This document shows, piece by piece, positions 15,634 through 60,177 of a DNA stretch of 64,000 nucleotides. Numbering within the stretch: the stretch's first letter is position 1; each line of letters starts with the position of its first letter. Under the pieces are notes generated by a model that saw nothing but the letters and a program-made list of their open reading frames with translations, was not told where the DNA came from and did no database searches. A program made the position numbers and the translations under genes. Source of the DNA: a virus; IMG/VR virus record IMGVR_UViG_3300010371_000001, positions 38,274 through 102,273 of that record; one strand, written 5' to 3'.

Positions 15634-16593
15634 CTACGAGGCATCCTCCTCGAAGAGCATGGCTTGGGTGAGATGTGTGGATGGCTCTGACGAGACGGCA
15701 TATCCCTCAACTGTGATAATGCCTTCTTTGACGAAATGTCGTAAGCTGCGGTAAACGTTGTCTCGGCTCATGGAGTATCGTTCCATGAGCGACTTCACTG
15801 CCTTCATCAGAAGCACTGGCACATGCGGTACCCACCCCAATTCGTGCAATGCAGCAAGGACGGTTTCAAGCCGTTGCTGGCTACGTTGTCGCTGATAATT
15901 CTGCCCCGCTTCTAGGCGTGCCTGCTCATTCGCTGAGAGTTCACGCGGCTTCTGGGCAGTGCGCCGAGCCTCAGTCCATTGTACCCCTGATTTAGCACGA
16001 CTAATCTTCTCGCGGACTTCTGGCGGCTTGGGTCCCGTCTTCGCCCCACGCCGCCGCGCATAATAGGCTTCTCGTTCAGGTGTTTTACCACGCGCTTTGA
16101 TCGCCGCTGCGCGTTTGGCAATAAGTTCGGGGTCTTGTTTCTTGCCTAGTCGCGCTTCTAAAGATCGTGTACGTGCCAGCGGGGAGAAGGCACTGTTCTT
16201 CTGCGCCTCTCGCATTTTGGCGAGAGTCTCTGGTCGGGCCTTTACACCTAATCGACTACGACCAACAAAGAGGCAGAGATTGTAACGAGGCTTTCGCTCA
16301 TCAATGTACCACTGTTCGCGGTCATCTAATTTGCGTTTGTTATCCACCCACTCCAACACTTCCCAGCCAAACGCCTCAGCGCCATATTTATCCCAGGCTC
16401 TTTGTAAGTGAGCGGTGTTGATACCGAGGCGCAATTCACGCATATGTTTATGCCATCGATGCCGCAGATGGACCGCTTGGCCGATATATTCATCTTGCTG
16501 CTCGCCATCTAAACGGTAGATGTGGTAAATGCATGAATGCTTGAGTTCGTCGGGGGTGTATTGAGAGTACGGAAACTCTGCGTCACGGGGCAT
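15634..16593 (-). CDS. Free-standing GIY-YIG homing endonuclease with NUMOD3-like repeats
   Basis: CIYHI..EYIGQA..RW..H..LQRAWDKYG..F..EVLE..REQWYID..YN; basic PETLAKM and PEVREKIS repeats. Confidence 0.9.
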   Translation of the reverse strand: MPRDAEFPYSQYTPDELKHSCIYHIYRLDGEQQDEYIGQAVHLRHRWHKHMRELRLGINTAHLQRAWDKYGAEAFGWEVLEWVDNKRKLDDREQWYIDERKPRYNLCLFVGRSRLGVKARPETLAKMREAQKNSAFSPLARTRSLEARLGKKQDPELIAKRAAAIKARGKTPEREAYYARRRGAKTGPKPPEVREKISRAKSGVQWTEARRTAQKPRELSANEQARLEAGQNYQRQRSQQRLETVLAALHELGWVPHVPVLLMKAVKSLMERYSMSRDNVYRSLRHFVKEGIITVEGYAVSSEPSTHLTQAMLFEEDAS

Positions 16594-46787: not shown

Positions 46788-48443
46788 CTACATCGGTAAC
46801 ATGGGCTGAGCAATCCACCCTAGCGTCTGAACCTTTGAAGGCGTGTCGAACGCCTTGCCGTCTAATAAGTCTTGAATCGTCCTGATTTGCAGGCGATGAT
46901 ATTCTTTGCCAAGATAGGTATATGTCCCAGCAGAAGCTGCTTCGGATATCATGCCCTTTGTTGGCTCTTGTAGACAGATGAACCCGGCCATTTCGGAATT
47001 GGGTTCCCGTTCCAAAACCCCGCGTAATTCACGCACAAATGCAGGTGTTAGTTTTCCGCCCTTGACGGATATGACCATATTTTTGAGGCTATCCCCTGTT
47101 TCAAAGTGGATGCGGCCATCCACTCCCAGATCGCCAGAATGTTTCGTGCTAGAAAATCCCCCGGCAAGCTCCACTGACCAATGCTGAAATTGCCGTGGAT
47201 CGCGGTTAAAGAGATCCTGAGCGCCTTCAACACTCAAGGGAACACCGCTAACTTCATAGTGTTCACCTTCTTGCAATCCGTAGCGACGGAAAAGGACATC
47301 ACGCACAAGCTGAACGGAGAGAATAGCGATATCGCATCCTATCCATTTGCGCCCAGACAAATGTGCGGCATAAATTGCCGTCCCGCAGCCACAAAACGGG
47401 TCAAAGACCACATCTCCCGGATTACTGCTTGCGGTGATGATGCGATCTAGGAGAGCGATAGGCTTTTGCGTAGGGTAGCCCAGTCGCTCGGAGGCCGATG
47501 CCTGAATTGGTGGGATATCATCCCATAAATTGCCAACTTTGGGAGGGGCCACCTCATTGAGATAAATCTTGCGGAGTGGGCGGCCCTTGCTATTCCAGGC
47601 TAGTTTGCCTAGTCGGTCAAACTCCTCAAGTTTCTCTCGTGTCATCATCCACCCATATTGGGGTGTGTAGCCCTTATATTCATAGATCAAGTTGGGTCGT
47701 ATCCCTAACGCCGCATTGCGCTCAATATCGTGTAATCGGTATCGCCTTCCATCCGGTTCCACGAAACGATAAAAATTCTCTACATAACGCTCATCACGCT
47801 CCTGAGTAGGGGGGTAAAATACGTAGCGATTGGTTTTGCTATAAAAGAAAATCGTATCAGTGATGTCACCTAGCCTGCGTGAAGTTGTATTATGAGCGGT
47901 CGTGCGCTTCCAAATAATCTCATTGCGGAAGTTCTGATGCCCGAACACTCCGTCCAGGATGACCTTGATATAGTGGCTAGCAGTAGAATCGCAATGAAGA
48001 TACAGGGAACCAGTTGGTTTAAGGATGCGACGCATTTCAAACAAGCGGTAAGACATGTACACCAGGTACGCAAGTAACCTTGGTTGTGTATGCCTAAGTG
48101 CATTGATCCAGGTTGCCCAAAAGGCTACCAAATCCTCATCAGCCCCGTACTCCCGAAATGACTGGGGCATATTGCGCACCATTTCTTCCTTTTCCGGGTC
48201 CATATCCCAGGCATCACAAAACGCTTCTTCCTGCTCTGGTACAGGTAGACCAGTGAGATTTTTGTAGATTAAGTTGTAGTTTCGCTGGCTATTGAATGGG
48301 GGATCGAGGTAAATGAGATCGACGGAAGCACTGGTCATTTCTCGCATAATGGTAAGGTTATCACCGTAAAATAAGTGGTTGTTTCTTATCCGCGTCTCCA
48401 CATCGAAGATGCCTGGTAGGTGTTGTGGATGCCTTTTGGTCAC
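46788..48443 (-). CDS. N6A/N4C DNA methyltransferase with C-terminal Mrr-like domain
   Basis: DLIYLDPPF, YPTQKP, DPFCGCGT (beta-class order); C-terminal D.GVDG..ISVKGG. Confidence 0.9.
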   Translation of the reverse strand: MTKRHPQHLPGIFDVETRIRNNHLFYGDNLTIMREMTSASVDLIYLDPPFNSQRNYNLIYKNLTGLPVPEQEEAFCDAWDMDPEKEEMVRNMPQSFREYGADEDLVAFWATWINALRHTQPRLLAYLVYMSYRLFEMRRILKPTGSLYLHCDSTASHYIKVILDGVFGHQNFRNEIIWKRTTAHNTTSRRLGDITDTIFFYSKTNRYVFYPPTQERDERYVENFYRFVEPDGRRYRLHDIERNAALGIRPNLIYEYKGYTPQYGWMMTREKLEEFDRLGKLAWNSKGRPLRKIYLNEVAPPKVGNLWDDIPPIQASASERLGYPTQKPIALLDRIITASSNPGDVVFDPFCGCGTAIYAAHLSGRKWIGCDIAILSVQLVRDVLFRRYGLQEGEHYEVSGVPLSVEGAQDLFNRDPRQFQHWSVELAGGFSSTKHSGDLGVDGRIHFETGDSLKNMVISVKGGKLTPAFVRELRGVLEREPNSEMAGFICLQEPTKGMISEAASAGTYTYLGKEYHRLQIRTIQDLLDGKAFDTPSKVQTLGWIAQPMLPM

Positions 48444-49254: not shown

Positions 49255-49516
49255 GGTGGGTAGGTTTACCCACCCATCGTTATTTATCTGCGTGACTTAC
49301 GGCTGATACACCGGCTGTTTCTCACTGCCATGTTTACTGCATGCTCCATGACGCCGCCGGAGTGGAGGTGATGTCAAATGAAGGGGGGGGAATAGCAAGG
49401 CAGGACTTTTGATGGTGAATTGTTACCGATTCCATCTTGATCCGCTTTGAAGTTTGGGGTATAGTATGTGGACAACATGTGGAAAACATGTTCACATCTC
49501 GAAGAGGAGGACCAAC

Positions 49517-50194
49517 ATGACCCAGCTTAACGAAGCAAAGTATCGGAATATTATCCTTTATTTCATTGGGAACACGGATGCAGCACAGCTCGGCAAAGTC
49601 AAGCTCATGAAATTGTTGTATTTCCTCGACTTCGCCTATTTTGAGCGGTATCGTATTTCGATGACGGGTGATGACTATCAGCATCAGGTTATGGGGCCAG
49701 TTCCCCTGGCGGCTTCTGCGGTAATTCATCGCATGCAATCAGATGGGCAAATCACCGCTCAAAAGCGCGCTGGGCAGGATGCCCACCCGCAAACAGAATA
49801 CATTCCACGCCAAGATCCTGACCTTACGGTCTTCTCAGATGCTGAGCGTGAAATGCTGATCATCGTTGCTCGTAAGTGGTATTGGCATACAGAGCGAGAA
49901 ATCGTTGATGCGGTGCATGGCGATTTGCCCTGGCAACAAACGGCTCCTAATGCTATCATTGATTACGCTCTTGCAGTTGAACGTGAACGCGAGTTTATCC
50001 TTAGTATGGCAACCGAAGAGATAGAGGATGACCTGCTGACGCCCGAAGATCAGCAGTTGCGTGATGATGGCTTGGCATTAATGGCGCAATTTGAGGAAAT
50101 GTCCCGCACGAATCCTACGTTTCAGCAGTGGATTCAAAAAGGCCTCATAAGCCTACAATCAGGGAACTACAGAACAACGTTCCTTGATATCTGA
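49517..50194 (+). CDS. Panacea (DUF4065/SocA-like) antitoxin
   Basis: KLMKLLYFLDF..GPVP..H.D.PW signature; AGGAGG RBS; TTGATC-17-TATAGT promoter. Confidence 0.85.
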   Translation: MTQLNEAKYRNIILYFIGNTDAAQLGKVKLMKLLYFLDFAYFERYRISMTGDDYQHQVMGPVPLAASAVIHRMQSDGQITAQKRAGQDAHPQTEYIPRQDPDLTVFSDAEREMLIIVARKWYWHTEREIVDAVHGDLPWQQTAPNAIIDYALAVEREREFILSMATEEIEDDLLTPEDQQLRDDGLALMAQFEEMSRTNPTFQQWIQKGLISLQSGNYRTTFLDI

Positions 50195-50589: not shown

Positions 50590-51243
50590 CTACGGCTTAT
50601 ATACCGGCCTCAACTCGTTGCCATGCTTGCTGCAATCGCCCTGATGCCCGCCACTCAGGCTATAGGTTCCGTCAACGCACTCATTCATAAATCCTGTGCC
50701 ATTCCAGAACGAGGCGATACAGTTGAACCAGTTGCAGATGTCCGCTGGGGGACTGTAGGCCAGGTGGCCAGTATTGGTGAATGTGTAATCGTAAGGATTG
50801 CCGTTGATCGCCGGATACTTTGGTGCTGGCTTCGGCGTTGCTGTGGGCGGGTGGCTCACGGGCTGCGTCGCCACAGGTGCGGGTGTTGATCCCGGCTTGG
50901 GAGTGGCATCCACGGCGGTATGCGTCGCTGTTGGACTCTGCGCTTGTGGTGTGTCTGTCGCACTGGTGACAATGACACCCGGCGAGGTGGAAGATCCACC
51001 GTCATTGGCTTGCTGGCTAGTGGTATCGGTTGTGCTGGCGTTGCTATTCAGCGCGCCGAAGGCACAGCAGGATATCAGTAAAATGCCAGTGATGCTGCCG
51101 ACGATGATCTGTGTGCGGCGCGTTTGCCCCTTGTACCAGGGCCATGCATGAGTGCGCAATTGCTGATATGTCCAGGCGCAAGCGCGCCATGTCATGCGGA
51201 ATAGCCAGACGGTCGCATTGATGCAGAAACGCAAGAAAGCCAT
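50590..51243 (-). CDS. Membrane-anchored Pro/Thr-rich protein with Cys-rich C-terminal domain
   Basis: TM helix, P/T linker, NPYDY..C..FNCI..C.DG.YS.SGG..CS.HG. Confidence 0.7.
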   Translation of the reverse strand: MAFLRFCINATVWLFRMTWRACAWTYQQLRTHAWPWYKGQTRRTQIIVGSITGILLISCCAFGALNSNASTTDTTSQQANDGGSSTSPGVIVTSATDTPQAQSPTATHTAVDATPKPGSTPAPVATQPVSHPPTATPKPAPKYPAINGNPYDYTFTNTGHLAYSPPADICNWFNCIASFWNGTGFMNECVDGTYSLSGGHQGDCSKHGNELRPVYKP

Positions 51244-51483
51244 GATGCACTCCTTGATGAACGAACGAACAATCAGAGTTCCATCATAGAGTGACAATTC
51301 GGCGCTGTCGAACGGCGTAGTACAAGACGGCTATAGAGCGCTGTGTGAGTGGTGTAATGGGGAATGTAAGGACTCGAGGATAATAGCCGATAAAAATTAG
51401 CACATACATTCAATTACTTGTTCATTTGTCCTAATAACCAGCGGATATATATGCTGACTTTTGAAATAAACATAAAATCCCTA

Positions 51484-51542
51484 TTGACAAGTGGCCATTA
51501 CTTAGGTAGCATGGTGTCCTCATCCATCACATCATCAGGAGG
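51484..51542 (+). promoter_or_regulatory. Orphaned promoter (TTGACA-17-TAGCAT) and AGGAGG RBS, the left flank of the IS607-like element
   Basis: No start codon lies at RBS distance in the present arrangement; both signals fit ATG 56579 if the element is removed. Confidence 0.65.
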
Positions 51543-51595
51543 CATTATAACTAGTCCCTTGTTTTGTACCCAAATCTACCCTTGTATGGTAGAAT

Positions 51596-52180
51596 ATGAG
51601 GATGAAACTGAGTGTATACGCAAGGCAGGTAGGCATCACCTACAAGACCGCCTATCGGATGTGGAAGGCAGGGCAGCTTGACGCCTATCAGTTGCCGACG
51701 GGGACCATTATCGTGCAAGAGGCACAACCACCTGTGACCGGAGTGGCGACCTATGCGCGGGTCTCATCTGCGGACCAGAAAGCCGATCTGGTGCGACAGG
51801 TAGAACGCTTGCGCGACTATGCCGCCGCCAAAGGCTATATCCTCACACGCGAAGTCCAAGAGATTGCTTCTGGCGTCAACGATAGCCGCCCGAAGCTGGC
51901 GTCATTGCTCAGTGATCGGCGCATCGGCTTGATCATCGTGGAACATCGGGATCGTCTCACTCGCTTTGGTTATAACTATCTTCGCTTACTCTTGGAACAG
52001 CAAGGACGGCGCATTGAAGTCATCAACCTTGCCGACAATGGCAAAGAGGATCTGATCGTGGATCTCGTCTCGATCATCTACTCGTTCAGCGCACGCCTGT
52101 ATGGACAGCGACGAGCCAAGCGCAAGACCGCCGATATCCACACCATCCTTGCCAGTGACACCCACTCATCGGTAGCATGA
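51596..52180 (+). CDS. tnpA: IS607-family serine recombinase TnpA
   Basis: N-terminal MerR-like HTH followed by YARVSS..DL.RQ..EIASG..DRLTRFG..SFSARLYG.R. Confidence 0.95.
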   Translation: MRMKLSVYARQVGITYKTAYRMWKAGQLDAYQLPTGTIIVQEAQPPVTGVATYARVSSADQKADLVRQVERLRDYAAAKGYILTREVQEIASGVNDSRPKLASLLSDRRIGLIIVEHRDRLTRFGYNYLRLLLEQQGRRIEVINLADNGKEDLIVDLVSIIYSFSARLYGQRRAKRKTADIHTILASDTHSSVA

Positions 52181-52182
52181 CA

Positions 52183-52220
52183 ACGCCCTGAGCCTTTCCG
52201 CTCAGGGCGTCTTTTTATTT
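52183..52220 (+). terminator. Intrinsic terminator after tnpA
   Basis: ACGCCCTGAG..CTCAGGGCGT followed by CTTTTTATTT. Confidence 0.8.
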
Positions 52221-52234
52221 GGTTGTCTCGCTAC

Positions 52235-52615
52235 CTACGCATACATGCGTGGTCCGGTATCCCGCCGCATCGGTATGGCGGCAGCGCGTTCTGCATCCGC
52301 CGCATCCATTGCCGCCGCCATGATGGCGACGCCCTGCTGCACATAGGCCGCATCCGCCGCCGCCGTGCGCTCCATAATCTCATGACGAGCAACGGCGCGA
52401 TGATGACAGTAGCGACCTGCCTTACCGGCGGGGCAAGAGCAAATCAGAGAGTAGCCTGCGATAATAACCGTGTAGCACCCGTCACCGCTAGCCGACGAAA
52501 CGGCGATGAACTTCTGCCCGGTCGCCTTGATCGTGCCATGCCCCACCACGTGAACCTCTTTGACCGTCGCGCGTGCCAGCGCCTTTTCGTACTGTGTCTG
52601 CTGATACTGTGTCAT
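52235..52615 (-). CDS. SWIM Zn-finger protein
   Basis: YTV..CSCPA..CHH; promoter TTGCTA-17-TATAAT (52710-52682). Confidence 0.75.
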   Translation of the reverse strand: MTQYQQTQYEKALARATVKEVHVVGHGTIKATGQKFIAVSSASGDGCYTVIIAGYSLICSCPAGKAGRYCHHRAVARHEIMERTAAADAAYVQQGVAIMAAAMDAADAERAAAIPMRRDTGPRMYA

Positions 52616-52798
52616 GATTGGAAGTCCCCTTGTCTTGATGTTAAGCCCTGAGTGGTCGCATCACTCATAACTTACATCTAAATTATACCATACTTAATAT
52701 GGTATAGCAAGGGAAATGGGACCAAAGTTACACCTATCTTGCATCGCTCTTTCTTGCGGGGTATAATTTTACTGTAATTCTACTGTAAGGAGGATTCA

Positions 52799-53059
52799 AT
52801 GACGCTTGCCGAATTACGCAAGGTCGTATCTCTCACGCAAGAAGAGGTCGCTCAATCGTGCGGGGTTAGTAAAACTACCGTATCAGCATGGGAGCGGGGT
52901 ACAGCAATTCCAAGGCTACGACATGTGCGCGCATTAGCAGAAGCATTGCACACCTCGATCAAAGATGTTCAATCGGCGATAGAGGCACAAAGAGAGGCGA
53001 GCATCAATGCGACAGATGCCCGCCGAAAAGCCCGCGCGGGGACTTCCATCAGCGCGTAG
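52799..53059 (+). CDS. XRE-HTH regulator 1 (cargo)
   Basis: LTQEEVAQSCGVSKTTVSAWERG; AAGGAGG RBS; TTGCAT-17-TATAAT promoter. Confidence 0.9.
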   Translation: MTLAELRKVVSLTQEEVAQSCGVSKTTVSAWERGTAIPRLRHVRALAEALHTSIKDVQSAIEAQREASINATDARRKARAGTSISA

Positions 53060-53225
53060 GCACCCTCAGCATAGCACATAGAAAGGTTAAGAAACTTTAA
53101 CCTTTACTTTCAGGCCAGGCCAGCAAAGGGTTGAGAGCATAGTACCATAGCCCAAAGTCTTTATAAGGACTTGATAAAGTTCCTGGGCTAGGTTATAATG
53201 CTTTTATCCTGATGAAAGGAGAAAG

Positions 53226-53441
53226 ATGACGCTCAGAGAGCTGCGTGAAAAGCGATCCATGACACAAATGGAAATCGCTGTTGCTGTTGAGGTTTCACTT
53301 CCCACAGTGGGCGCTTGGGAAAAAGGAACCAGCAGACCGCGACCCATTCATGTCAGAAAGTTAGCGACACTGTTTGGAGTGAGCATTGAAGAAATGCAAG
53401 CAGTCCTTGATACTACTGCTCAATCCGCATCCAGTTCGTAG
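53226..53441 (+). CDS. XRE-HTH regulator 2 (cargo, paralog of regulator 1)
   Basis: MTQMEIAVAVEVSLPTVGAWEKG; TTGATA-17-TATAAT promoter (53171-53199). Confidence 0.9.
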   Translation: MTLRELREKRSMTQMEIAVAVEVSLPTVGAWEKGTSRPRPIHVRKLATLFGVSIEEMQAVLDTTAQSASSS

Positions 53442-53542
53442 TTAATGTTTAGCATGTCGAAAGCGGCTGTTCAGTTTCCAGGCCGACAACCGCTCTCACC
53501 AAAACCACATTCGAGAGGAATCTCGAAAGGAGCCTTACCCAT

Positions 53543-54049
53543 ATGGTAGCATATACCCCGGCGGTTGGCAATAAGCCGCCGATGACCGCTACGCCCGCAT
53601 GGCCCGTCAGTGTGCCAGCCATTCAAGAGCAACCCGCCACGCGCCGTATTTGCCCCACGTGTGACGGGCGTGGTGACACGCTCACGCATGGTCGTTACGA
53701 CACATGCCGCCCTTGCGCTGGCCTGGGTGAAATTATCCCAGACCGCGCCGTGTTCGCCCATGAATTGCTCGCTGACTTTCAGCGCCATATCGCCGTCCCC
53801 CTTGTCAGTGACACCACATCATCCACGTGGCTTGCCGATGCCCTTGACCAGGGCGCGACGGACCAGCAGTGGAATCTGCAAGACTGGCTGCAAATCTATG
53901 AGTTCGTCTGCTTCTATGCCCCACTGTACGAAGTGGCGGATGATGACGAAATCGCCCCGTATTGGCAGCCCGCCGCTCGGCGCTGTGTGAAGCGCATCAA
54001 CGCGTTCCTGCATGCCCAATGGGCAGAAGGGGTGGATGACGCGCTATGA
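53543..54049 (+). CDS. Zn-finger (CxxCxGxG) hypothetical protein (cargo)
   Basis: CPTCDGRG..CRPCAGLG; AAGGAG RBS. Confidence 0.65.
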   Translation: MVAYTPAVGNKPPMTATPAWPVSVPAIQEQPATRRICPTCDGRGDTLTHGRYDTCRPCAGLGEIIPDRAVFAHELLADFQRHIAVPLVSDTTSSTWLADALDQGATDQQWNLQDWLQIYEFVCFYAPLYEVADDDEIAPYWQPAARRCVKRINAFLHAQWAEGVDDAL

Positions 54050-54348
54050 ACCTGCCTCCACGTGGCCCCGCGCCCGTCAACCCGCAAATGGAGGCGTATG
54101 TGACGCGCATCGCCCCTGCCATTACTGAGGCGGTCGCGCTGATCCTCGTTTTGCAGAGCCAGCGCCGTGATCCCGCGCTGTACACCCCGATGGTTGCCCA
54201 CGTGGCAACCATCCTAGCCGTCTCGCGTCACATCTTCCACGTAGATGGCGCATCCAAGTCTGCCATGACGCAGATCGACGCGCTGCTTACCAAGATGCAA
54301 AAGGTTCAGGATATGGCGCTTGCCGTCCTGAATCCCCCAACCGATTAG
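54046..54348 (+). CDS. Hypothetical protein (cargo)
   Basis: ATGA-coupled to the previous gene. Confidence 0.55.
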   Translation: MNLPPRGPAPVNPQMEAYVTRIAPAITEAVALILVLQSQRRDPALYTPMVAHVATILAVSRHIFHVDGASKSAMTQIDALLTKMQKVQDMALAVLNPPTD

Positions 54349-54361
54349 GGAGAATCACCCG

Positions 54362-54628
54362 ATGTTTCCTGAATTGACCGTCCCTCTTGCTGTATTCATG
54401 GATGCAGCCGTGCGTCACCCAATGAAGGTGCTTGGTTGCGGCACGTGGGAGAGCGGTTGCGAGTTTTATCTGATTGCTGATACCGAACACGCTGCCCTTG
54501 TCACCGCTGGTGAGCATGACTACACGTGTTCCTGTGGTGGCAAGTTGAGTGAGCCATGCATACATGTCGGCACAATGGTTGCCCGGTATTTCGGTTACTC
54601 CCCCATCCTGAAAGGAAACCTGCCGTGA
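54362..54628 (+). CDS. Small SWIM-like protein (cargo)
   Basis: YTCSCG..PCIHV; GGGAG RBS. Confidence 0.6.
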   Translation: MFPELTVPLAVFMDAAVRHPMKVLGCGTWESGCEFYLIADTEHAALVTAGEHDYTCSCGGKLSEPCIHVGTMVARYFGYSPILKGNLP

Positions 54629-55224
54629 GTAACGCCGCCGCCCCTTTGTATGAAGTCAAGGGACCACCACTTTCGGTGCCAGCCAGGGACCACACGCCCC
54701 TTGCGCCAAGTAGCATCACTCATACGCCTGTGGATGGCATGAGCGATATCGAATATGCCATTAGCACCCTTGGCACCGCCGATCCCGGCAATATCGGGCA
54801 TTTCCTGGGCGATCAGTTTGCCAATCGGACGTATCCTAAGCTCATCACCTTGCCGGAAATGGAGCAGATGGCGTATGAGAGCCTCCATTTCCTGAGCATC
54901 CCTGCCATCACGGCTTACGCGCATTGGTGGCTTTCGCCCGATTTCCACCGCTCACCTAACTTGACGGATGATGAGGCGTTGGCACTGGGCAAGTTCGTGA
55001 GCCGATTCATCACCGAGTATGGATGTGCAACGGTGGAACTCTTGGAGATGCAAATGTCGGATCTGTTCGACATGGGCGAATATGATAACATGTTCGCTCT
55101 TGCCCGTCTGCATCCGGCCTATGCCCGCTACTGCATCGCCCACATTGTCCGTCTGTTCCTGACGAAAAGCTGCCACATTCACTTCAATGTGGTAGAAGAT
55201 GTCATTGCGCACGCTGGGTTGTAG
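54625..55224 (+). CDS. Hypothetical protein (cargo), directly upstream of tnpB
   Basis: GTGA overlap, AAAGGA RBS; its stop overlaps the tnpB RBS. Confidence 0.6.
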   Translation: MSNAAAPLYEVKGPPLSVPARDHTPLAPSSITHTPVDGMSDIEYAISTLGTADPGNIGHFLGDQFANRTYPKLITLPEMEQMAYESLHFLSIPAITAYAHWWLSPDFHRSPNLTDDEALALGKFVSRFITEYGCATVELLEMQMSDLFDMGEYDNMFALARLHPAYARYCIAHIVRLFLTKSCHIHFNVVEDVIAHAGL

Positions 55225-55235
55225 GAGCTAACCAT

Positions 55236-56537
55236 ATGGAGATCGTCCGGGGATACAAGACTGAACTGGATTTGAATAACAAGCAGCGCACGGCATGTCT
55301 CCAGCATGCGGGGTGTGCCAGATTCGCCTACAATTGGGGACTGGCACGCAAACAAGCGGCAATGGCAGCACGCAAAGCAGCGGCAGATCCTAAGTCAGTC
55401 AAGATTCCCACCGCCATCGATCTCCATCGGGAACTGAATGCCTTGAAATCCACCGAGTTCCCTTGGATGTACGAAAGCTCAAAATGCGGACCCCAAGAGG
55501 CGTTGCGCGACCTGGACACGGCATTCAGCAACTTCTTTGCCAAGCGTGCCAAGTACCCCAAGTTCAAGAAACGCAGCAAGGGCATCGGCTCGTTCACGCT
55601 GACGGGAACCATTCATGTTGGTCCGGACTGGATTCAGTTACCCGTCATTGGGAAGGTGCGATTGTTTGAACATGGCTACTTGCCCCAAGACACGGATCTG
55701 CATACCAAAGACCGCAAGACGCTCAAGAAACGTGAGAAGAAAGGGCGCATCATCACAGGGCCAGCCCACTACCTGAGCGCGACTGTATCTGAACGTGCGG
55801 GACATTGGTTCGTTTCTGTGCAAGTCAAAGACATCGTTCCTGACCCTGAACCAGCGACGGGTGAACCAATTGGCGTTGACTTGGGCATCAAAACATTAGC
55901 CGTATGTTCGGATGGGCAAGAGGTTCCTAATCCCAAGGCGTTGCGGGGCAACCTGGGCAAACTCAAAAGGACACAGCGCCATCACAGTAAGCGCAAGAAA
56001 GGTAGTAACAACCGCAAGAAGTCCAAACAAGAAGTAGCCCGCGTCCATTATCGGATTGCCAATATCCGAGAAGATGCTTTGCATCAGGCGACCGCGAAGA
56101 TCACGGCAAAAGCCAAGCCGCCATCCAAGCGACCGCAAGCGATCATCTTGGAAGATCTCAACGTGGCGGGCATGCTCAAAAATCACAAGCTGGCACAGGC
56201 GATAGCGGACGTGGGGCTAGGGGAGTTTCGCCGCCAGATGAGCTACAAATCTCTCTGGTATGGCAATCGGCTGTATCTGGCCCATCGTTTCTTCCCTTCA
56301 ACTCAACTGTGTTCACAGTGCCATCGTTTGCCCTCGGTGCCACTGGATTTGAGCGTGCGGACCTATGAGTGTGAGCATTGCGGCCTGGTCCTTGACCGGG
56401 ATCTCAATGCCGCACGCAATTTACTGTGGCTGTATACCGCTAGTTCAGCGGAAATCGACGCCTGTGGAGAGATCGTAAGACCAATGGTGCTTGCACTAAA
56501 GGCAGTCTCGTTGAAGCAGGAACCGGATGCCACTTAG
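55236..56537 (+). CDS. tnpB: RNA-guided endonuclease TnpB
   Basis: HTH_OrfB N-terminus, RuvC D (GVDLG), E (LEDL) and D (DRDLNAA) all intact; CxxC..CxxC Zn finger. Confidence 0.95.
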   Translation: MEIVRGYKTELDLNNKQRTACLQHAGCARFAYNWGLARKQAAMAARKAAADPKSVKIPTAIDLHRELNALKSTEFPWMYESSKCGPQEALRDLDTAFSNFFAKRAKYPKFKKRSKGIGSFTLTGTIHVGPDWIQLPVIGKVRLFEHGYLPQDTDLHTKDRKTLKKREKKGRIITGPAHYLSATVSERAGHWFVSVQVKDIVPDPEPATGEPIGVDLGIKTLAVCSDGQEVPNPKALRGNLGKLKRTQRHHSKRKKGSNNRKKSKQEVARVHYRIANIREDALHQATAKITAKAKPPSKRPQAIILEDLNVAGMLKNHKLAQAIADVGLGEFRRQMSYKSLWYGNRLYLAHRFFPSTQLCSQCHRLPSVPLDLSVRTYECEHCGLVLDRDLNAARNLLWLYTASSAEIDACGEIVRPMVLALKAVSLKQEPDAT

Positions 56538-56590
56538 GCGTGTCCTATTTGGGTAAATTCTGGAGAACGGACATCCACATGGCCAGCAAC
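56430..56590 (+). ncRNA. TnpB omega-RNA (scaffold to 56570, guide from 56571)
   Basis: It overlaps the tnpB 3' end and the element right end, as established for TnpB systems; the boundaries are approximate. Confidence 0.6.
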
Positions 56591-58045
56591 CAGTTGTACT
56601 ACGGCGACAACCTCGACATCTTGCGTAAGAAAATTCATGACGAGACGATAGATCTCTGCTACATTGACCCACCGTTTAACTCCAAACGCACCTACAACCA
56701 AATTTACAACAATATCGGTACTGAAGATCGCGCGCAATCCCAAGCATTTATCGATACCTGGACATGGGATGATCGCGCTATTGCCGGATTCCAAGAAATC
56801 CTCAGCAATGATCAGGCGCGATTTACCAGTCAGACAGTTGAGCTAATCAAGGGACTGTATCATGTTTTGGGTTTTGGCAGCTTGTTAGCATACTTGGTGA
56901 GTATGACTTTGCGTGTCACAGAAATCCACCGTGTTTTGAAACCGACTGGAAGCTTCTACCTTCATTGCGATCCAACCTCAAGTCACTACCTGAAACTGGT
57001 ACTCGATGCGATCTTCGTACCTACTGGCGGTGATTTTCAGAATGAGATTGCTTGGTGTTATGGCTCAGGAGGGGCAAGTAAACGGCATTTTTCGAGAAAA
57101 CATGACATCCTGTTTTTCTACACAAAAGGAGCATACTACACCTTTAACGTGGATGGTGTGAGAGAGCCATATAGTTCACCTGAGAAAGTAGAATTCAAAG
57201 TTATTGGAGATAAGCGGTATCAGAGAAAAAACCCTCTTGGTCGCATACCGTTTGACTGGTGGCAAATGCCAATACTGACAAATACTGCCAAAGAACGGCT
57301 TGGCTACCCCACACAAAAGCCAGAGGCATTGCTTGAACGAATTATTGAGGCAAGTTCTAATGAAGGCGATACTGTCCTTGATGCCTATTGCGGCTGTGGA
57401 ACAACGATTGCTGTAGCACAACACCTGAAACGCAAATGGATCGGTATTGATATCACCTATCAGGCAATTGCACTCATTTTAGAGCGAATCGAGGATCAGT
57501 TTAGCAAAGAGGCGCTTGACGCCATTACGCTTGATGGCATTCCAAGTGATATAGATTCAGCCAAAGCTCTCGCTCATAAGCAGGATGATCGGGTGCGCAA
57601 GGAATTTGAGAAGTGGGCCGTCTTGACCTACACCAATAATCGGGCCATCATCCATCAAAAGAAGGGTGCAGACGGTGGGGTTGATGGCGTTGCCTACTTT
57701 TTGACCAGTCATTCAGGCAATGCCAAGATCATCTTTCAGGTGAAATCGGGCAAAGTAGGACGTGGCGACATTGCAAAATTACGTGGGGATATGCAACGAG
57801 AGTCAGCAGCGTTGGCGGTATTTATTACACTTGAACACCCTACTGGACCTATGATCGCTGAAGCAAAGGCCGCTGGACGCTATTATCATGAGATCATGGA
57901 CAGGCACTACGATACGATTGCGATTATGGCTATCCAAGATATCCTTGATCGCCAACGCCTCAGCATTCCTCTGAATTTTGAAGTCATTCGATCCGCACAA
58001 CGGAAAGCTTCCGAGGTTCAACTCTCACTTGTCGATAGCATGTAG
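56579..58045 (+). CDS. Second N6A/N4C DNA methyltransferase with C-terminal Mrr-like domain
   Basis: NQLYYGDNL, YIDPPF, YPTQKP, DAYCGCGT; D.GVDG..FQVKSG. Confidence 0.9.
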   Translation: MASNQLYYGDNLDILRKKIHDETIDLCYIDPPFNSKRTYNQIYNNIGTEDRAQSQAFIDTWTWDDRAIAGFQEILSNDQARFTSQTVELIKGLYHVLGFGSLLAYLVSMTLRVTEIHRVLKPTGSFYLHCDPTSSHYLKLVLDAIFVPTGGDFQNEIAWCYGSGGASKRHFSRKHDILFFYTKGAYYTFNVDGVREPYSSPEKVEFKVIGDKRYQRKNPLGRIPFDWWQMPILTNTAKERLGYPTQKPEALLERIIEASSNEGDTVLDAYCGCGTTIAVAQHLKRKWIGIDITYQAIALILERIEDQFSKEALDAITLDGIPSDIDSAKALAHKQDDRVRKEFEKWAVLTYTNNRAIIHQKKGADGGVDGVAYFLTSHSGNAKIIFQVKSGKVGRGDIAKLRGDMQRESAALAVFITLEHPTGPMIAEAKAAGRYYHEIMDRHYDTIAIMAIQDILDRQRLSIPLNFEVIRSAQRKASEVQLSLVDSM

Positions 58046-59409: not shown

Positions 59410-60177
59410 TTAGGCAGCAAATTCACTAATGGATTGATTGCGTTGACTCCATAAAATAGGCGTCAGTCCGTACTTTCTGAGGGCGTCAATCGCCTCAGGT
59501 GAAGTAGATTTATCCATATCATTAATCATGGTATAGGCTCGTGCATCGGATGGACGTGTCTCTCGAATATCAATCCAGGTAAACGCAATGGATTCAATCT
59601 TTTCTCGTCCCGAAGAGTTGGCGACTTGGACGATGCGCTCTGGAGCCTGGGGCGAATGGGGTATGACAAAGTTGAGGAGGTGATCGTACCCGGACTTTCC
59701 GGCAACCTTAATATTCGATATGTAGCGGATGCTCGACGCATCGAACCATGTTGATACATCTTCAAGGAAGATGCCAGCAACATTGTGGGATGCTATTGAA
59801 AACAAGTCGTTGACCGCAAGCATCGCTTGGACGAGGCTGTGTTTCTTCAAAGGGAAGTCTTGCTTCGTTGCATAGACTACAAGAGCATCGCCATCACGTT
59901 GCACGCCAAATCCATTAAGGATTGCTTGCAGCATAGCCTGCCGCCGTGGGGTTTGTAAATCGCATCCAGATCGGAGCAGATCGTGGATAATATACGCATC
60001 ATCTGTCAGGACGAATCCTGAGTCATTGGTCCCTACATAGATCTGTAGATAATCATTATGGCGATCAAGAAACGGCGTATTGATTTCAATCCACTGATGA
60101 TCAATCTGGCGCAAGGTCTCTTTGCTCTTGAGCCAAATCCAATAGTGATCGATCAGGCTTTGCACATTATTTATCAT
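59410..60177 (-). CDS. DUF1828/DUF1829-like protein
   Basis: EINTPFLDRHNDYLQIY..LTDD..GKSGYDH..FVIP..W.DI. Confidence 0.8.
   Translation of the reverse strand: MINNVQSLIDHYWIWLKSKETLRQIDHQWIEINTPFLDRHNDYLQIYVGTNDSGFVLTDDAYIIHDLLRSGCDLQTPRRQAMLQAILNGFGVQRDGDALVVYATKQDFPLKKHSLVQAMLAVNDLFSIASHNVAGIFLEDVSTWFDASSIRYISNIKVAGKSGYDHLLNFVIPHSPQAPERIVQVANSSGREKIESIAFTWIDIRETRPSDARAYTMINDMDKSTSPEAIDALRKYGLTPILWSQRNQSISEFAA

Follow-up and report, generated by a model that had tools for sequence, protein, structure and literature searches.

Could an IS607-family transposon take up a multi-gene passenger block between its recombinase gene and its nuclease gene, and still be a single element? IS605 and IS607 elements are regarded as minimal, and TnpB as a device that prevents the loss of the transposon. 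The question is raised by a stretch of 64,000 nucleotides (nt), hereafter the window, which represents bases 38274-102273 of the 102,273-bp IMG/VR virus record IMGVR_UViG_3300010371_000001, a phage record with direct terminal repeats that is rated complete. An earlier reading made from the letters alone (the sequence-only reading) had proposed here a cargo-carrying element of about 5 kb, with tnpA near its left end and tnpB near its right end. Here, we suggest, with a probability of roughly two in three, that positions 51542/3-56570 of the window constitute one IS607-family transposon carrying a 3-kb passenger block. The parts of the locus on which this depends are as follows.

51484-51542 (+): left flank, with an orphaned promoter TTGACA-17-TAGCAT at 51484-51512 (promoter scan) and the Shine-Dalgarno sequence AGGAGG at 51537-51542
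51542-51601 (+): left end (LE), with the core GG 51541-42 or GC 51542-43, a 9-mer and the extended -10 box TGGTAGAAT at 51587-95
51596-52180 (+): tnpA, IS607 serine recombinase of 194 amino acids (aa), or 192 aa from 51602
55236-56537 (+): tnpB, RNA-guided nuclease of 433 aa with HTH, OrfB_IS605 and TNB domains
56421-56570 (+): scaffold of the omega-RNA (reRNA), 150 nt up to the right end (RE), with a RAGATH-18-like stem at 56461-56522, the 9-mer ATTTGGGTA at 56547-55 and GG at 56569-70
56571-56590 (+): predicted guide/target ACATCCACATGGCCAGCAAC, which opens the flank and includes the start codon of the methyltransferase gene
56579-58045 (+): methyltransferase-Mrr gene, encoding a fusion of an N6/N4 DNA methyltransferase and an Mrr-type nuclease domain (Pfam N6_N4_Mtase 5e-46, Mrr_cat 1e-8)

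The reading is carried by an element-free allele. A 6.5-kb stretch around the element was found in two soil metagenome runs, X1, which is the likely source, and X2, which belongs to an unrelated 2023 study. In X2, a 506-nt contig with a depth of 6.7 joins 51468-51541 to 56569-57000 with 0 mismatches and no gap, and 5,027 nt are skipped. Since this empty allele lacks 51542-56568 between otherwise identical phage DNA, the whole block of tnpA, cargo, tnpB and RNA is one presence/absence difference. A misjoin in a de Bruijn assembly is implausible at this joint, because there is no repeat longer than 1 nt at its two sides. The single unit of about 5 kb expected from the sequence-only reading is thus found, with an indel of 5,027 bp rather than 5,028 bp. 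Occupied and empty alleles occur in two metagenomes, as expected of a mobile unit, but they concern a single copy at a single site.

The insertion point lies between the Shine-Dalgarno sequence and the ATG of the methyltransferase-Mrr gene, 8 nt upstream of the ATG. The ATG at 56579 is the true start, because homologues in Ktedonobacteria begin with MKNQLYYGDNL and have a purine-rich box upstream. In the empty allele, the left flank 51484-51542 abuts ACATCCAC-ATG, and the joined flanks read TTGACA-17-TAGCAT, 24 nt, AGGAGG, 9 nt, ATG GCC AGC AAC CAG TTG TAC TAC GGC GAC AAC. As judged from the sequence, the element cuts the methyltransferase-Mrr gene off from its predicted promoter and ribosome-binding site, which the empty allele confirms.

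Could the 3-kb block have been misjoined into an IS607 copy during assembly? Copies of insertion sequences (ISs) are classic sites of misassembly, and the cargo is unique to this record. However, a 56,923-nt Logan contig of the source run spans 50800-57300 with 0 differences, three assemblies of the source sample give the same element structure, and the same proteins are encoded in both the JGI assembly (102,273 bp) and the ENA/Logan one (102,171 bp). Moreover, only one IS copy is available in the genome to be misjoined. An artefact of this kind is most improbable.

The two ends could be located by comparison with related copies. The right end is at 56570, where eight related copies end in ...GGAGAACGG and diverge at once after GG; the longer right-end sequence common to the eight is ...CCTATTTGGGTAA.TTCTGGAGAACGG, and the flanks beyond GG are unrelated. 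As the sequence-only reading had it, GG at 51541-42 lies 53 bp before the ATG at 51596 and GG at 56569-70 lies 33 bp past the tnpB stop codon. The inverted 9-mer near both ends was also recovered: TACCCAAAT is present at 51567-75 (+) and 56547-55 (-), with three copies in the window against 0.27 expected, and it is kept in the related copies in the end alignment. The LE was aligned with those of five related loci (L053, L054, L133, L134 and L135). Its DNA homology to related copies begins at 51548, and both the 9-mer and the promoter box TGTGGTAGAAT are common to the canonical lineage described below. The ends are consequently conserved, non-symmetrical and shared with other copies, and the empty allele shows no target duplication.

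If tnpA and tnpB were independent remnants of two elements flanking native phage genes, internal ends might be expected, and these were looked for. R1, a covariance model derived from the terminal 150 nt of the eight copies, finds no second right end or omega-RNA in the window besides 56421-56570, so that no RE-like end or RNA follows tnpA; for an internal LE in the cargo, Smith-Waterman comparison of the LEs gave only a 10-12-mer (p 0.015-0.3). Two observations would suit such remnants, namely that the terminal 24 nt of the LE and the 3' end of tnpA differ from the tnpB lineage, and that a 12-nt match to an LE box lies at 55188-55199, 36 nt upstream of tnpB. This match is barely above chance (p 0.015-0.3), the empty allele removes 51542-56568 all at once, the joined flanks restore a promoter-Shine-Dalgarno-ATG unit, and TnpA residues 1-134 and TnpB have identical closest relatives. 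It is very unlikely that two remnants are present, and the single element of the sequence-only reading is upheld, as neither of the findings that would have spoken against it, internal ends or a mismatch between the left flank and the target-adjacent motif (TAM) of TnpB, was made. On the other hand, the same reading had called the element composite, which does not agree with one LE, one RE and no second pair of IS ends. As for the 12-nt match itself, TGTGGTAGAAGA at 55188-55199 is the LE promoter box of L133 and L134 and lies within the last cargo open reading frame (ORF); it may represent the remnant of an end, or else a promoter inside the element.

Do tnpA and tnpB belong to one IS lineage? 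TnpA matches Pfam PF00239 Resolvase (1.7e-18), PHROG 6620 and the NCBIfam IS607 transposase NF033518 (175.9 bits, cut-off 110), and contains the catalytic motif YARVSSADQ. Because the conserved extended -10 box ends 6-7 bases before the ATG at 51602, tnpA is probably leaderless and starts at this codon; JGI calls the 192-aa product. TnpB matches NF040570 with 276 bits (cut-off 100), and alignment to ISDra2 TnpB (8h1j) indicates that the RuvC residues D215/E/D (VDLG, LEDL, DRDLNAA) and the CxxC...CxxC motif are intact. The closest TnpBs, 83-90% identical in amino acids, come from Ktedonobacteria genomes and soil metagenomes, while the closest one in IMG/VR is only 55% identical, and GenBank phages gave no DNA match to the region or the cargo in near or distant search mode. 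At L053, L054, L133, L134 and L140, a TnpA (73-78% identical in amino acids) is encoded directly upstream in a frame running into tnpB, and this canonical Ktedonobacteria element is about 1.95 kb long. DNA homology between the window and the canonical copies covers 51548-52112 and 55235-56570/1, with nothing between, and TnpA residues 1-134 and TnpB point to the same closest relatives. The two genes adjoin and overlap in the canonical copies, and they are the cognate pair of one IS lineage. Several chromosomal relatives carry stops or frameshifts, whereas tnpA, tnpB and the omega-RNA are intact in the phage.

What sets the phage copy apart is the distance between the two genes: 3,055 bp, against a median of 37 nt and a maximum of 1,230 nt among 88 related loci with a same-strand tnpA. 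At 5,027 bp, it lies outside the range of compact IS607 elements (about 1.7-2.5 kb, with adjacent or overlapping tnpA and tnpB). The intervening features (the passengers occupy 52181-55235) are listed below.

52183-52220 (+): strong intrinsic terminator right after tnpA, with an 11-bp stem and a U tract (-22.6 kcal/mol, z -5.8)
52235-52615 (-): passenger 1, 126 aa, CxC...CxH (SWIM-like) motif, divergently transcribed, no family match
52672-52777 (no strand): divergent promoter region, with two back-to-back GGTATAAT boxes within an 18-nt inverted repeat
52799-53059 (+): passenger 2, XRE-family HTH regulator of 86 aa (Pfam HTH_3 2.5e-14; PHROG transcriptional regulators)
53226-53441 (+): passenger 3, XRE-family HTH regulator of 71 aa, 48% identical to passenger 2
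53543-54049 (+): passenger 4 (o168), 168 aa, CxxC...CxxC zinc-ribbon motif, weak DnaJ zinc-finger match (0.0023)
54046-54348 (+): passenger 5 (o100), 100 aa, no family
54362-54628 (+): passenger 6 (o88), 88 aa, SWIM-like CxC...CxH; Pfam SWIM below threshold (E 0.063, 13.3 vs 19.6 bits)
54625-55224 (+): passenger 7 (o199), orphan of 199 aa, ORF open from 54556, ending 11 nt before tnpB

The count of seven cargo genes in the sequence-only reading is retained, but the first plus-strand ORF, 52223-52651, is probably spurious: no pipeline calls it, and the minus-strand gene 52615-52235 is called by JGI, Logan and ENA. The description of the cargo as a regulatory module is fair for the two XRE genes, while the five other proteins have no family match in Pfam, PHROGs, PADLOC or NCBIfam (PADLOC and NCBIfam gave generic XRE matches only). 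As no satellite functions, such as capsid redirection, packaging or replication, were found in these four collections either, the term satellite-like is not borne out. Atlas look-ups of o168 and o199 yielded nothing usable, and o199 has five weak matches among 1.84 billion representatives. Passenger 3 has its own promoter, TTGATA-17-TATAAT, at 53171-53199. In addition, two copies of TACTGTAA at a spacing of 11 nt immediately precede the first XRE gene (within 52672-52788); this pair and the 18-nt inverted repeat are candidate operators of the cargo regulators. The genes o168, o100, o88, o199 and tnpB form a tight run, with overlaps or gaps of no more than 13 nt. Because of this run and of the terminator after tnpA, tnpB appears to be the last gene of a cargo operon that is transcribed from the cargo promoters and not with tnpA. 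The terminator is absent in the canonical copies, where tnpA overlaps tnpB.

Could the right end of such an element still guide TnpB? Among the eight copies, identity is 91% over the final 150 nt of the element and about 80% over the rest of tnpB. The R1 model has one match in the window (56421-56570) and 86 full-length matches at the 3' ends of tnpB genes in related loci. In the R1 alignment of 73 distinct sequences, 39 of 41 base pairs covary and 92.9% of the cells are paired. Sliding the partners lowers the paired fraction to 36-46% and the covariation score from 0.548 to 0.05-0.09, and none of 500 shuffles reached 0.548. Fitting of the alignment to the model biases this comparison towards the structure, although the margin is large. 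Single-sequence folding of 56421-56570 is no better than that of shuffles (z 0.63), and the structure rests on covariation. RNAs derived from RAGATH-18 are the guide RNAs of IS607 TnpBs (PMC11061315). Further R1 matches were seen on a viral contig with a GC content of 0.34-0.37, 2.5 and 4.8 kb downstream of a tnpB (L147:13598-13747 and 15930-16028; L003:11596-11747), and these could mark additional tnpB 3' ends or guide RNAs that stand alone.

The guide proposed by the sequence-only reading, ACATCCACATGGCCAGCAAC, proved right: the flanks of the relatives diverge exactly at this position, the sequence is unique in the window, and the empty allele contains it unchanged. Such a guide would target an element-free phage allele, and one exists in nature, in X2, with a fitting TAM. 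The TAM had been given as GAGG, which is close, but it is better read as GAGGG or AGGG in view of the empty allele, the LE flanks of the relatives and the published motif. The empty allele reads GAGGG/ACATCC..., while the right end of the occupied allele reads ACGG/ACATCC.... Four close copies have GAGGG, GAGGG, TAGGG and GGGGG at the LE flank, and about a dozen more distant relatives have nAGGG there, with their ends placed by eye. For IS607 TnpBs of the RAGATH-18 type, the reported TAMs are 5'-AGGAG in 18 of 22 strains and 5'-GAGGG in 4 of 22 (PMC11061315). In the CboIStron, TGGG is replaced by TCGG at the right end, and this difference at position -3 protects from self-cleavage (10.1101/2023.11.20.567912). 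No second instance of the site was found in IMG/VR, where the guide/empty-site 18-mer is absent and the best methyltransferase relative is 62% identical, so that there is no syntenic empty site; in 169 Ktedonobacteria genomes, the methyltransferase reached only about 71% DNA identity, with an unpublished genome among the matches, G077, left aside.

Several points weigh against a mobile, guide-bearing unit and should be considered together. The empty allele is one short contig with a depth of 6.7, in which "never inserted" and "excised" are indistinguishable; the empty joint is absent from the contigs of the source run X1, which drop rare variants and are therefore uninformative on excision. 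Both tnpA and tnpB are single-copy in the 102-kb phage genome. Rfam RAGATH-18 (RF03064) matches in full length at 56461-56522, with 31.7 bits (E 0.0055), below the gathering cut-off of 44.9. At the LE, the outermost 24 nt, counted from the G run, match those of the canonical lineage in length but not in sequence. Every cargo cluster at 90% identity is a singleton that consists of this phage's copy alone. The cargo genes are absent from about 200 related loci and from GenBank phages, IMG/VR has no relatives of o222 (the long form of passenger 7), o168 or the 126-aa gene, and the 169 Ktedonobacteria genomes, in which only o222 was searched, lack it too. The tnpA-cargo-tnpB unit that the sequence-only reading proposed to look for at other loci was sought via its cargo and not found; that is, movement of the unit has not been seen twice.

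The tnpA gene is also a mosaic, with a breakpoint near 51990-52020. Residues 1-134 of TnpA are 82-87% identical to the canonical lineage, whereas residues 135-194 are only about 52% identical to it, but 65-88% identical to many other IS607 TnpAs. This suggests that recombination brought in the 3' end of tnpA together with the terminator and the cargo, and that its other junction lies immediately ahead of the tnpB start. No donor of the tnpA 3' end and the cargo was found among the related loci: the best match there, the tnpA of G002:C28 (66% identical), is followed by an ordinary tnpB and no cargo. As a side observation, a Ktedonobacteria genome of 10.7 Mb (G144) has at least 16 equal-score matches of 64% to the C-terminal query of tnpA (for example, C1:769804-769971), which look like a strongly proliferated IS607.

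The core dinucleotides raise a related question. The occupied left junction has CAGGAGG in common with the empty allele, the right junction has GGACATCC in common with it, and the overlap of the two on the empty allele, CAGGAGGGACATCC, is 1 base. Conservative exchange at a two-base core requires two shared bases. The RE core is GG at 56569-70, and the LE also reads GG (51541-42) in one register, but its flank then overlaps with the empty allele by only 1 nt. Either the X2 strain has one more G, or the left core is GC (51542-43) and the right core GG (56569-70). Integration of a GC-core donor at GG sites by CboTnpA leaves precisely LE=GC and RE=GG, and mismatched cores abolished excision in the CboIStron (bioRxiv 10.1101/2023.11.20.567912). 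By analogy, the phage copy may be unable to excise, locked in place by a GC/GG mismatch, which is a further point against mobility. With a GC left core, the circular RE-LE junction would read ...GAGAACGG/GC-ATTATAAC....

These features could also be explained by a nested, immobile relic. A 2-kb IS607 would have been inserted first, a 3-kb segment with a foreign tnpA 3' end would later have replaced the tnpA-tnpB junction, the left core would have mutated from GG to GC, and the unit would have become fixed; tnpB may then be decaying, or may have been co-opted as the last gene of a phage operon. The mosaic tnpA with its breakpoint near residue 134, the terminator and cargo promoters that uncouple tnpB from tnpA, the 1-nt overlap at the joint (fitting a GC/GG mismatch, which blocks excision in a studied IS607), the single copy and the cargo unseen elsewhere would all agree with such a history. 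However, an intermediate allele was not observed, the natural empty allele is still matched exactly by guide and TAM, and tnpA, tnpB and the omega-RNA are all intact, in contrast to the stops and frameshifts of several chromosomal relatives. Furthermore, copying driven by TnpB would need no TnpA (non-restorative homing, discussed in PMC13565253). We consider the relic unlikely, and prefer the reading as one transposon with a passenger block.

How, then, might this transposon work? Its ancestor would be the 1.95-kb Ktedonobacteria IS with tnpA overlapping tnpB, which gained the 3-kb passenger block. TnpB would bind an RNA made of the last ~150 nt of the element and the adjoining ~16-20 nt of flank, and this complex would cut DNA reading GAGGG-ACATCCACATGGCC..., i.e., the element-free allele, while the occupied allele, whose right end has ACGG in place of the TAM, would escape. 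An element-free genome of a co-resident phage, or the donor site after excision, would be cut and then either destroyed or repaired from an element-bearing copy, and repair would copy all 5 kb, the cargo included. That the genes are expressed, that TnpB cuts and homes, and that TnpA moves the unit as a whole is inferred. It is further conceivable that the element acts as a natural RNA-guided gene drive between phage genomes, in which, where one cell contains both phage variants, TnpB and its omega-RNA would cut the element-free allele at the methyltransferase start, recombinational repair would copy in the 5-kb unit without TnpA, element-free competitors would be destroyed, and cargo promoters with two XRE regulators would time the expression of tnpB. 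We hold this last proposal as possible but doubtful.

As for the setting, the phage is tailed, encoding a head maturation protease, a tape measure protein and ParB, and Ktedonobacteria are its likely host clade, to judge by where relatives of the IS and the methyltransferase occur. The element is located in an accessory region of the phage genome. Just upstream of the insertion are a gene with a SocA/Panacea antitoxin domain (49454-50194, +) and a second DNA methyltransferase gene (46788-48443, -), whose product is 33% identical to the interrupted one. The same accessory region contains a DUF1828/DUF1829 protein gene (59410-60177, -), which matches the PADLOC candidate defence family PDC-M24B (4.9e-97). 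Outside the window (G000:C1:8127-8540), the phage genome contains a gene for another serine recombinase, which is 28% identical to TnpA.

What this locus offers is an IS607-family member that carries, on a complete phage genome, a block of several passenger genes with promoters of their own. The natural pair of occupied and empty alleles, with an exact guide match and a published TAM, could be cloned for tests of TnpB-driven copying of kilobase cargo, and bears also on the payload size that TnpA tolerates in IS607 and on the GC/GG mismatch as a lock. If the gene drive were real, a seven-gene regulatory module would spread through a phage population without TnpA.

How does the element compare with known systems? 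The canonical copies L053, L054, L133, L134 and L140 share its right end, omega-RNA, LE promoter box and 9-mer, but they have no cargo, their tnpA overlaps tnpB, the terminal 24 nt of their LEs differ (those of L140 also depart), and several are pseudogenised. Like the ISFba1-type RAGATH-18 IS607 elements (Ren et al. 2024, PMC11061315), the phage element combines a serine TnpA, a TnpB with RuvC D-E-D and zinc finger, and a structured right-end RNA with the flank as its 3' extension, and their GAGGG class of TAMs fits the empty allele here. Those elements, however, are about 2 kb long, against 5,027 bp here with tnpA and tnpB 3 kb apart, and the reRNA of ISFba1 is described as lying outside the ORF, while the scaffold here overlaps the 3' end of tnpB by about 117 nt.

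The CboIStron of C. botulinum (Zedaveinyte et al., 10.1101/2023.11.20.567912) has a GG core, as the right end has here, and likewise a TAM that equals the TnpA target (TGGG there, GAGGG/AGGG here); the C at position -3 of the right end provides self-avoidance there and would do so here. Its pattern of LE=GC and RE=GG may also be present here. Its TnpB cuts the donor joint. Unlike the present element, which carries protein-coding cargo in a phage, the CboIStron contains a group I intron. The free-standing homing endonucleases of phages, such as T4 Seg/Mob (PMC13565253), resemble the predicted activity in that a co-infecting element-free allele is cleaved and linked DNA is co-converted, but here recognition would depend on a guide RNA and TAM, and the element has its own recombinase and defined transposon ends.

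Finally, the sequence-only reading knew of no described IS607 with such an architecture, which needs correction. Rare cargo, including an extra HTH protein, has been published for TnpB transposons with serine recombinases (branch Ser-3, Altae-Tran et al. 2023, PMC10691335); as here, the TnpA(Ser)-TnpB transposon has taken up an HTH protein and genes without known function. Compared with them, the element here has seven genes with promoters and a terminator, verified ends, an empty allele and a phage host. Three relatives, whose TnpBs are 46-48% identical to that of the phage, each have one passenger gene in the tnpA-tnpB interval, namely a D12 Dam methyltransferase (Pfam 5e-36) at L111:1134-3795, a P-loop AAA_18-like protein at L194:594-3075 and a 352-aa protein of no family at L181:1250-4212. 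Since relatives carry single passengers at this position, the tnpA-tnpB junction appears to have received cargo repeatedly in this TnpB clade. The architecture in the phage is therefore an extreme case of something known and not a new kind of element.

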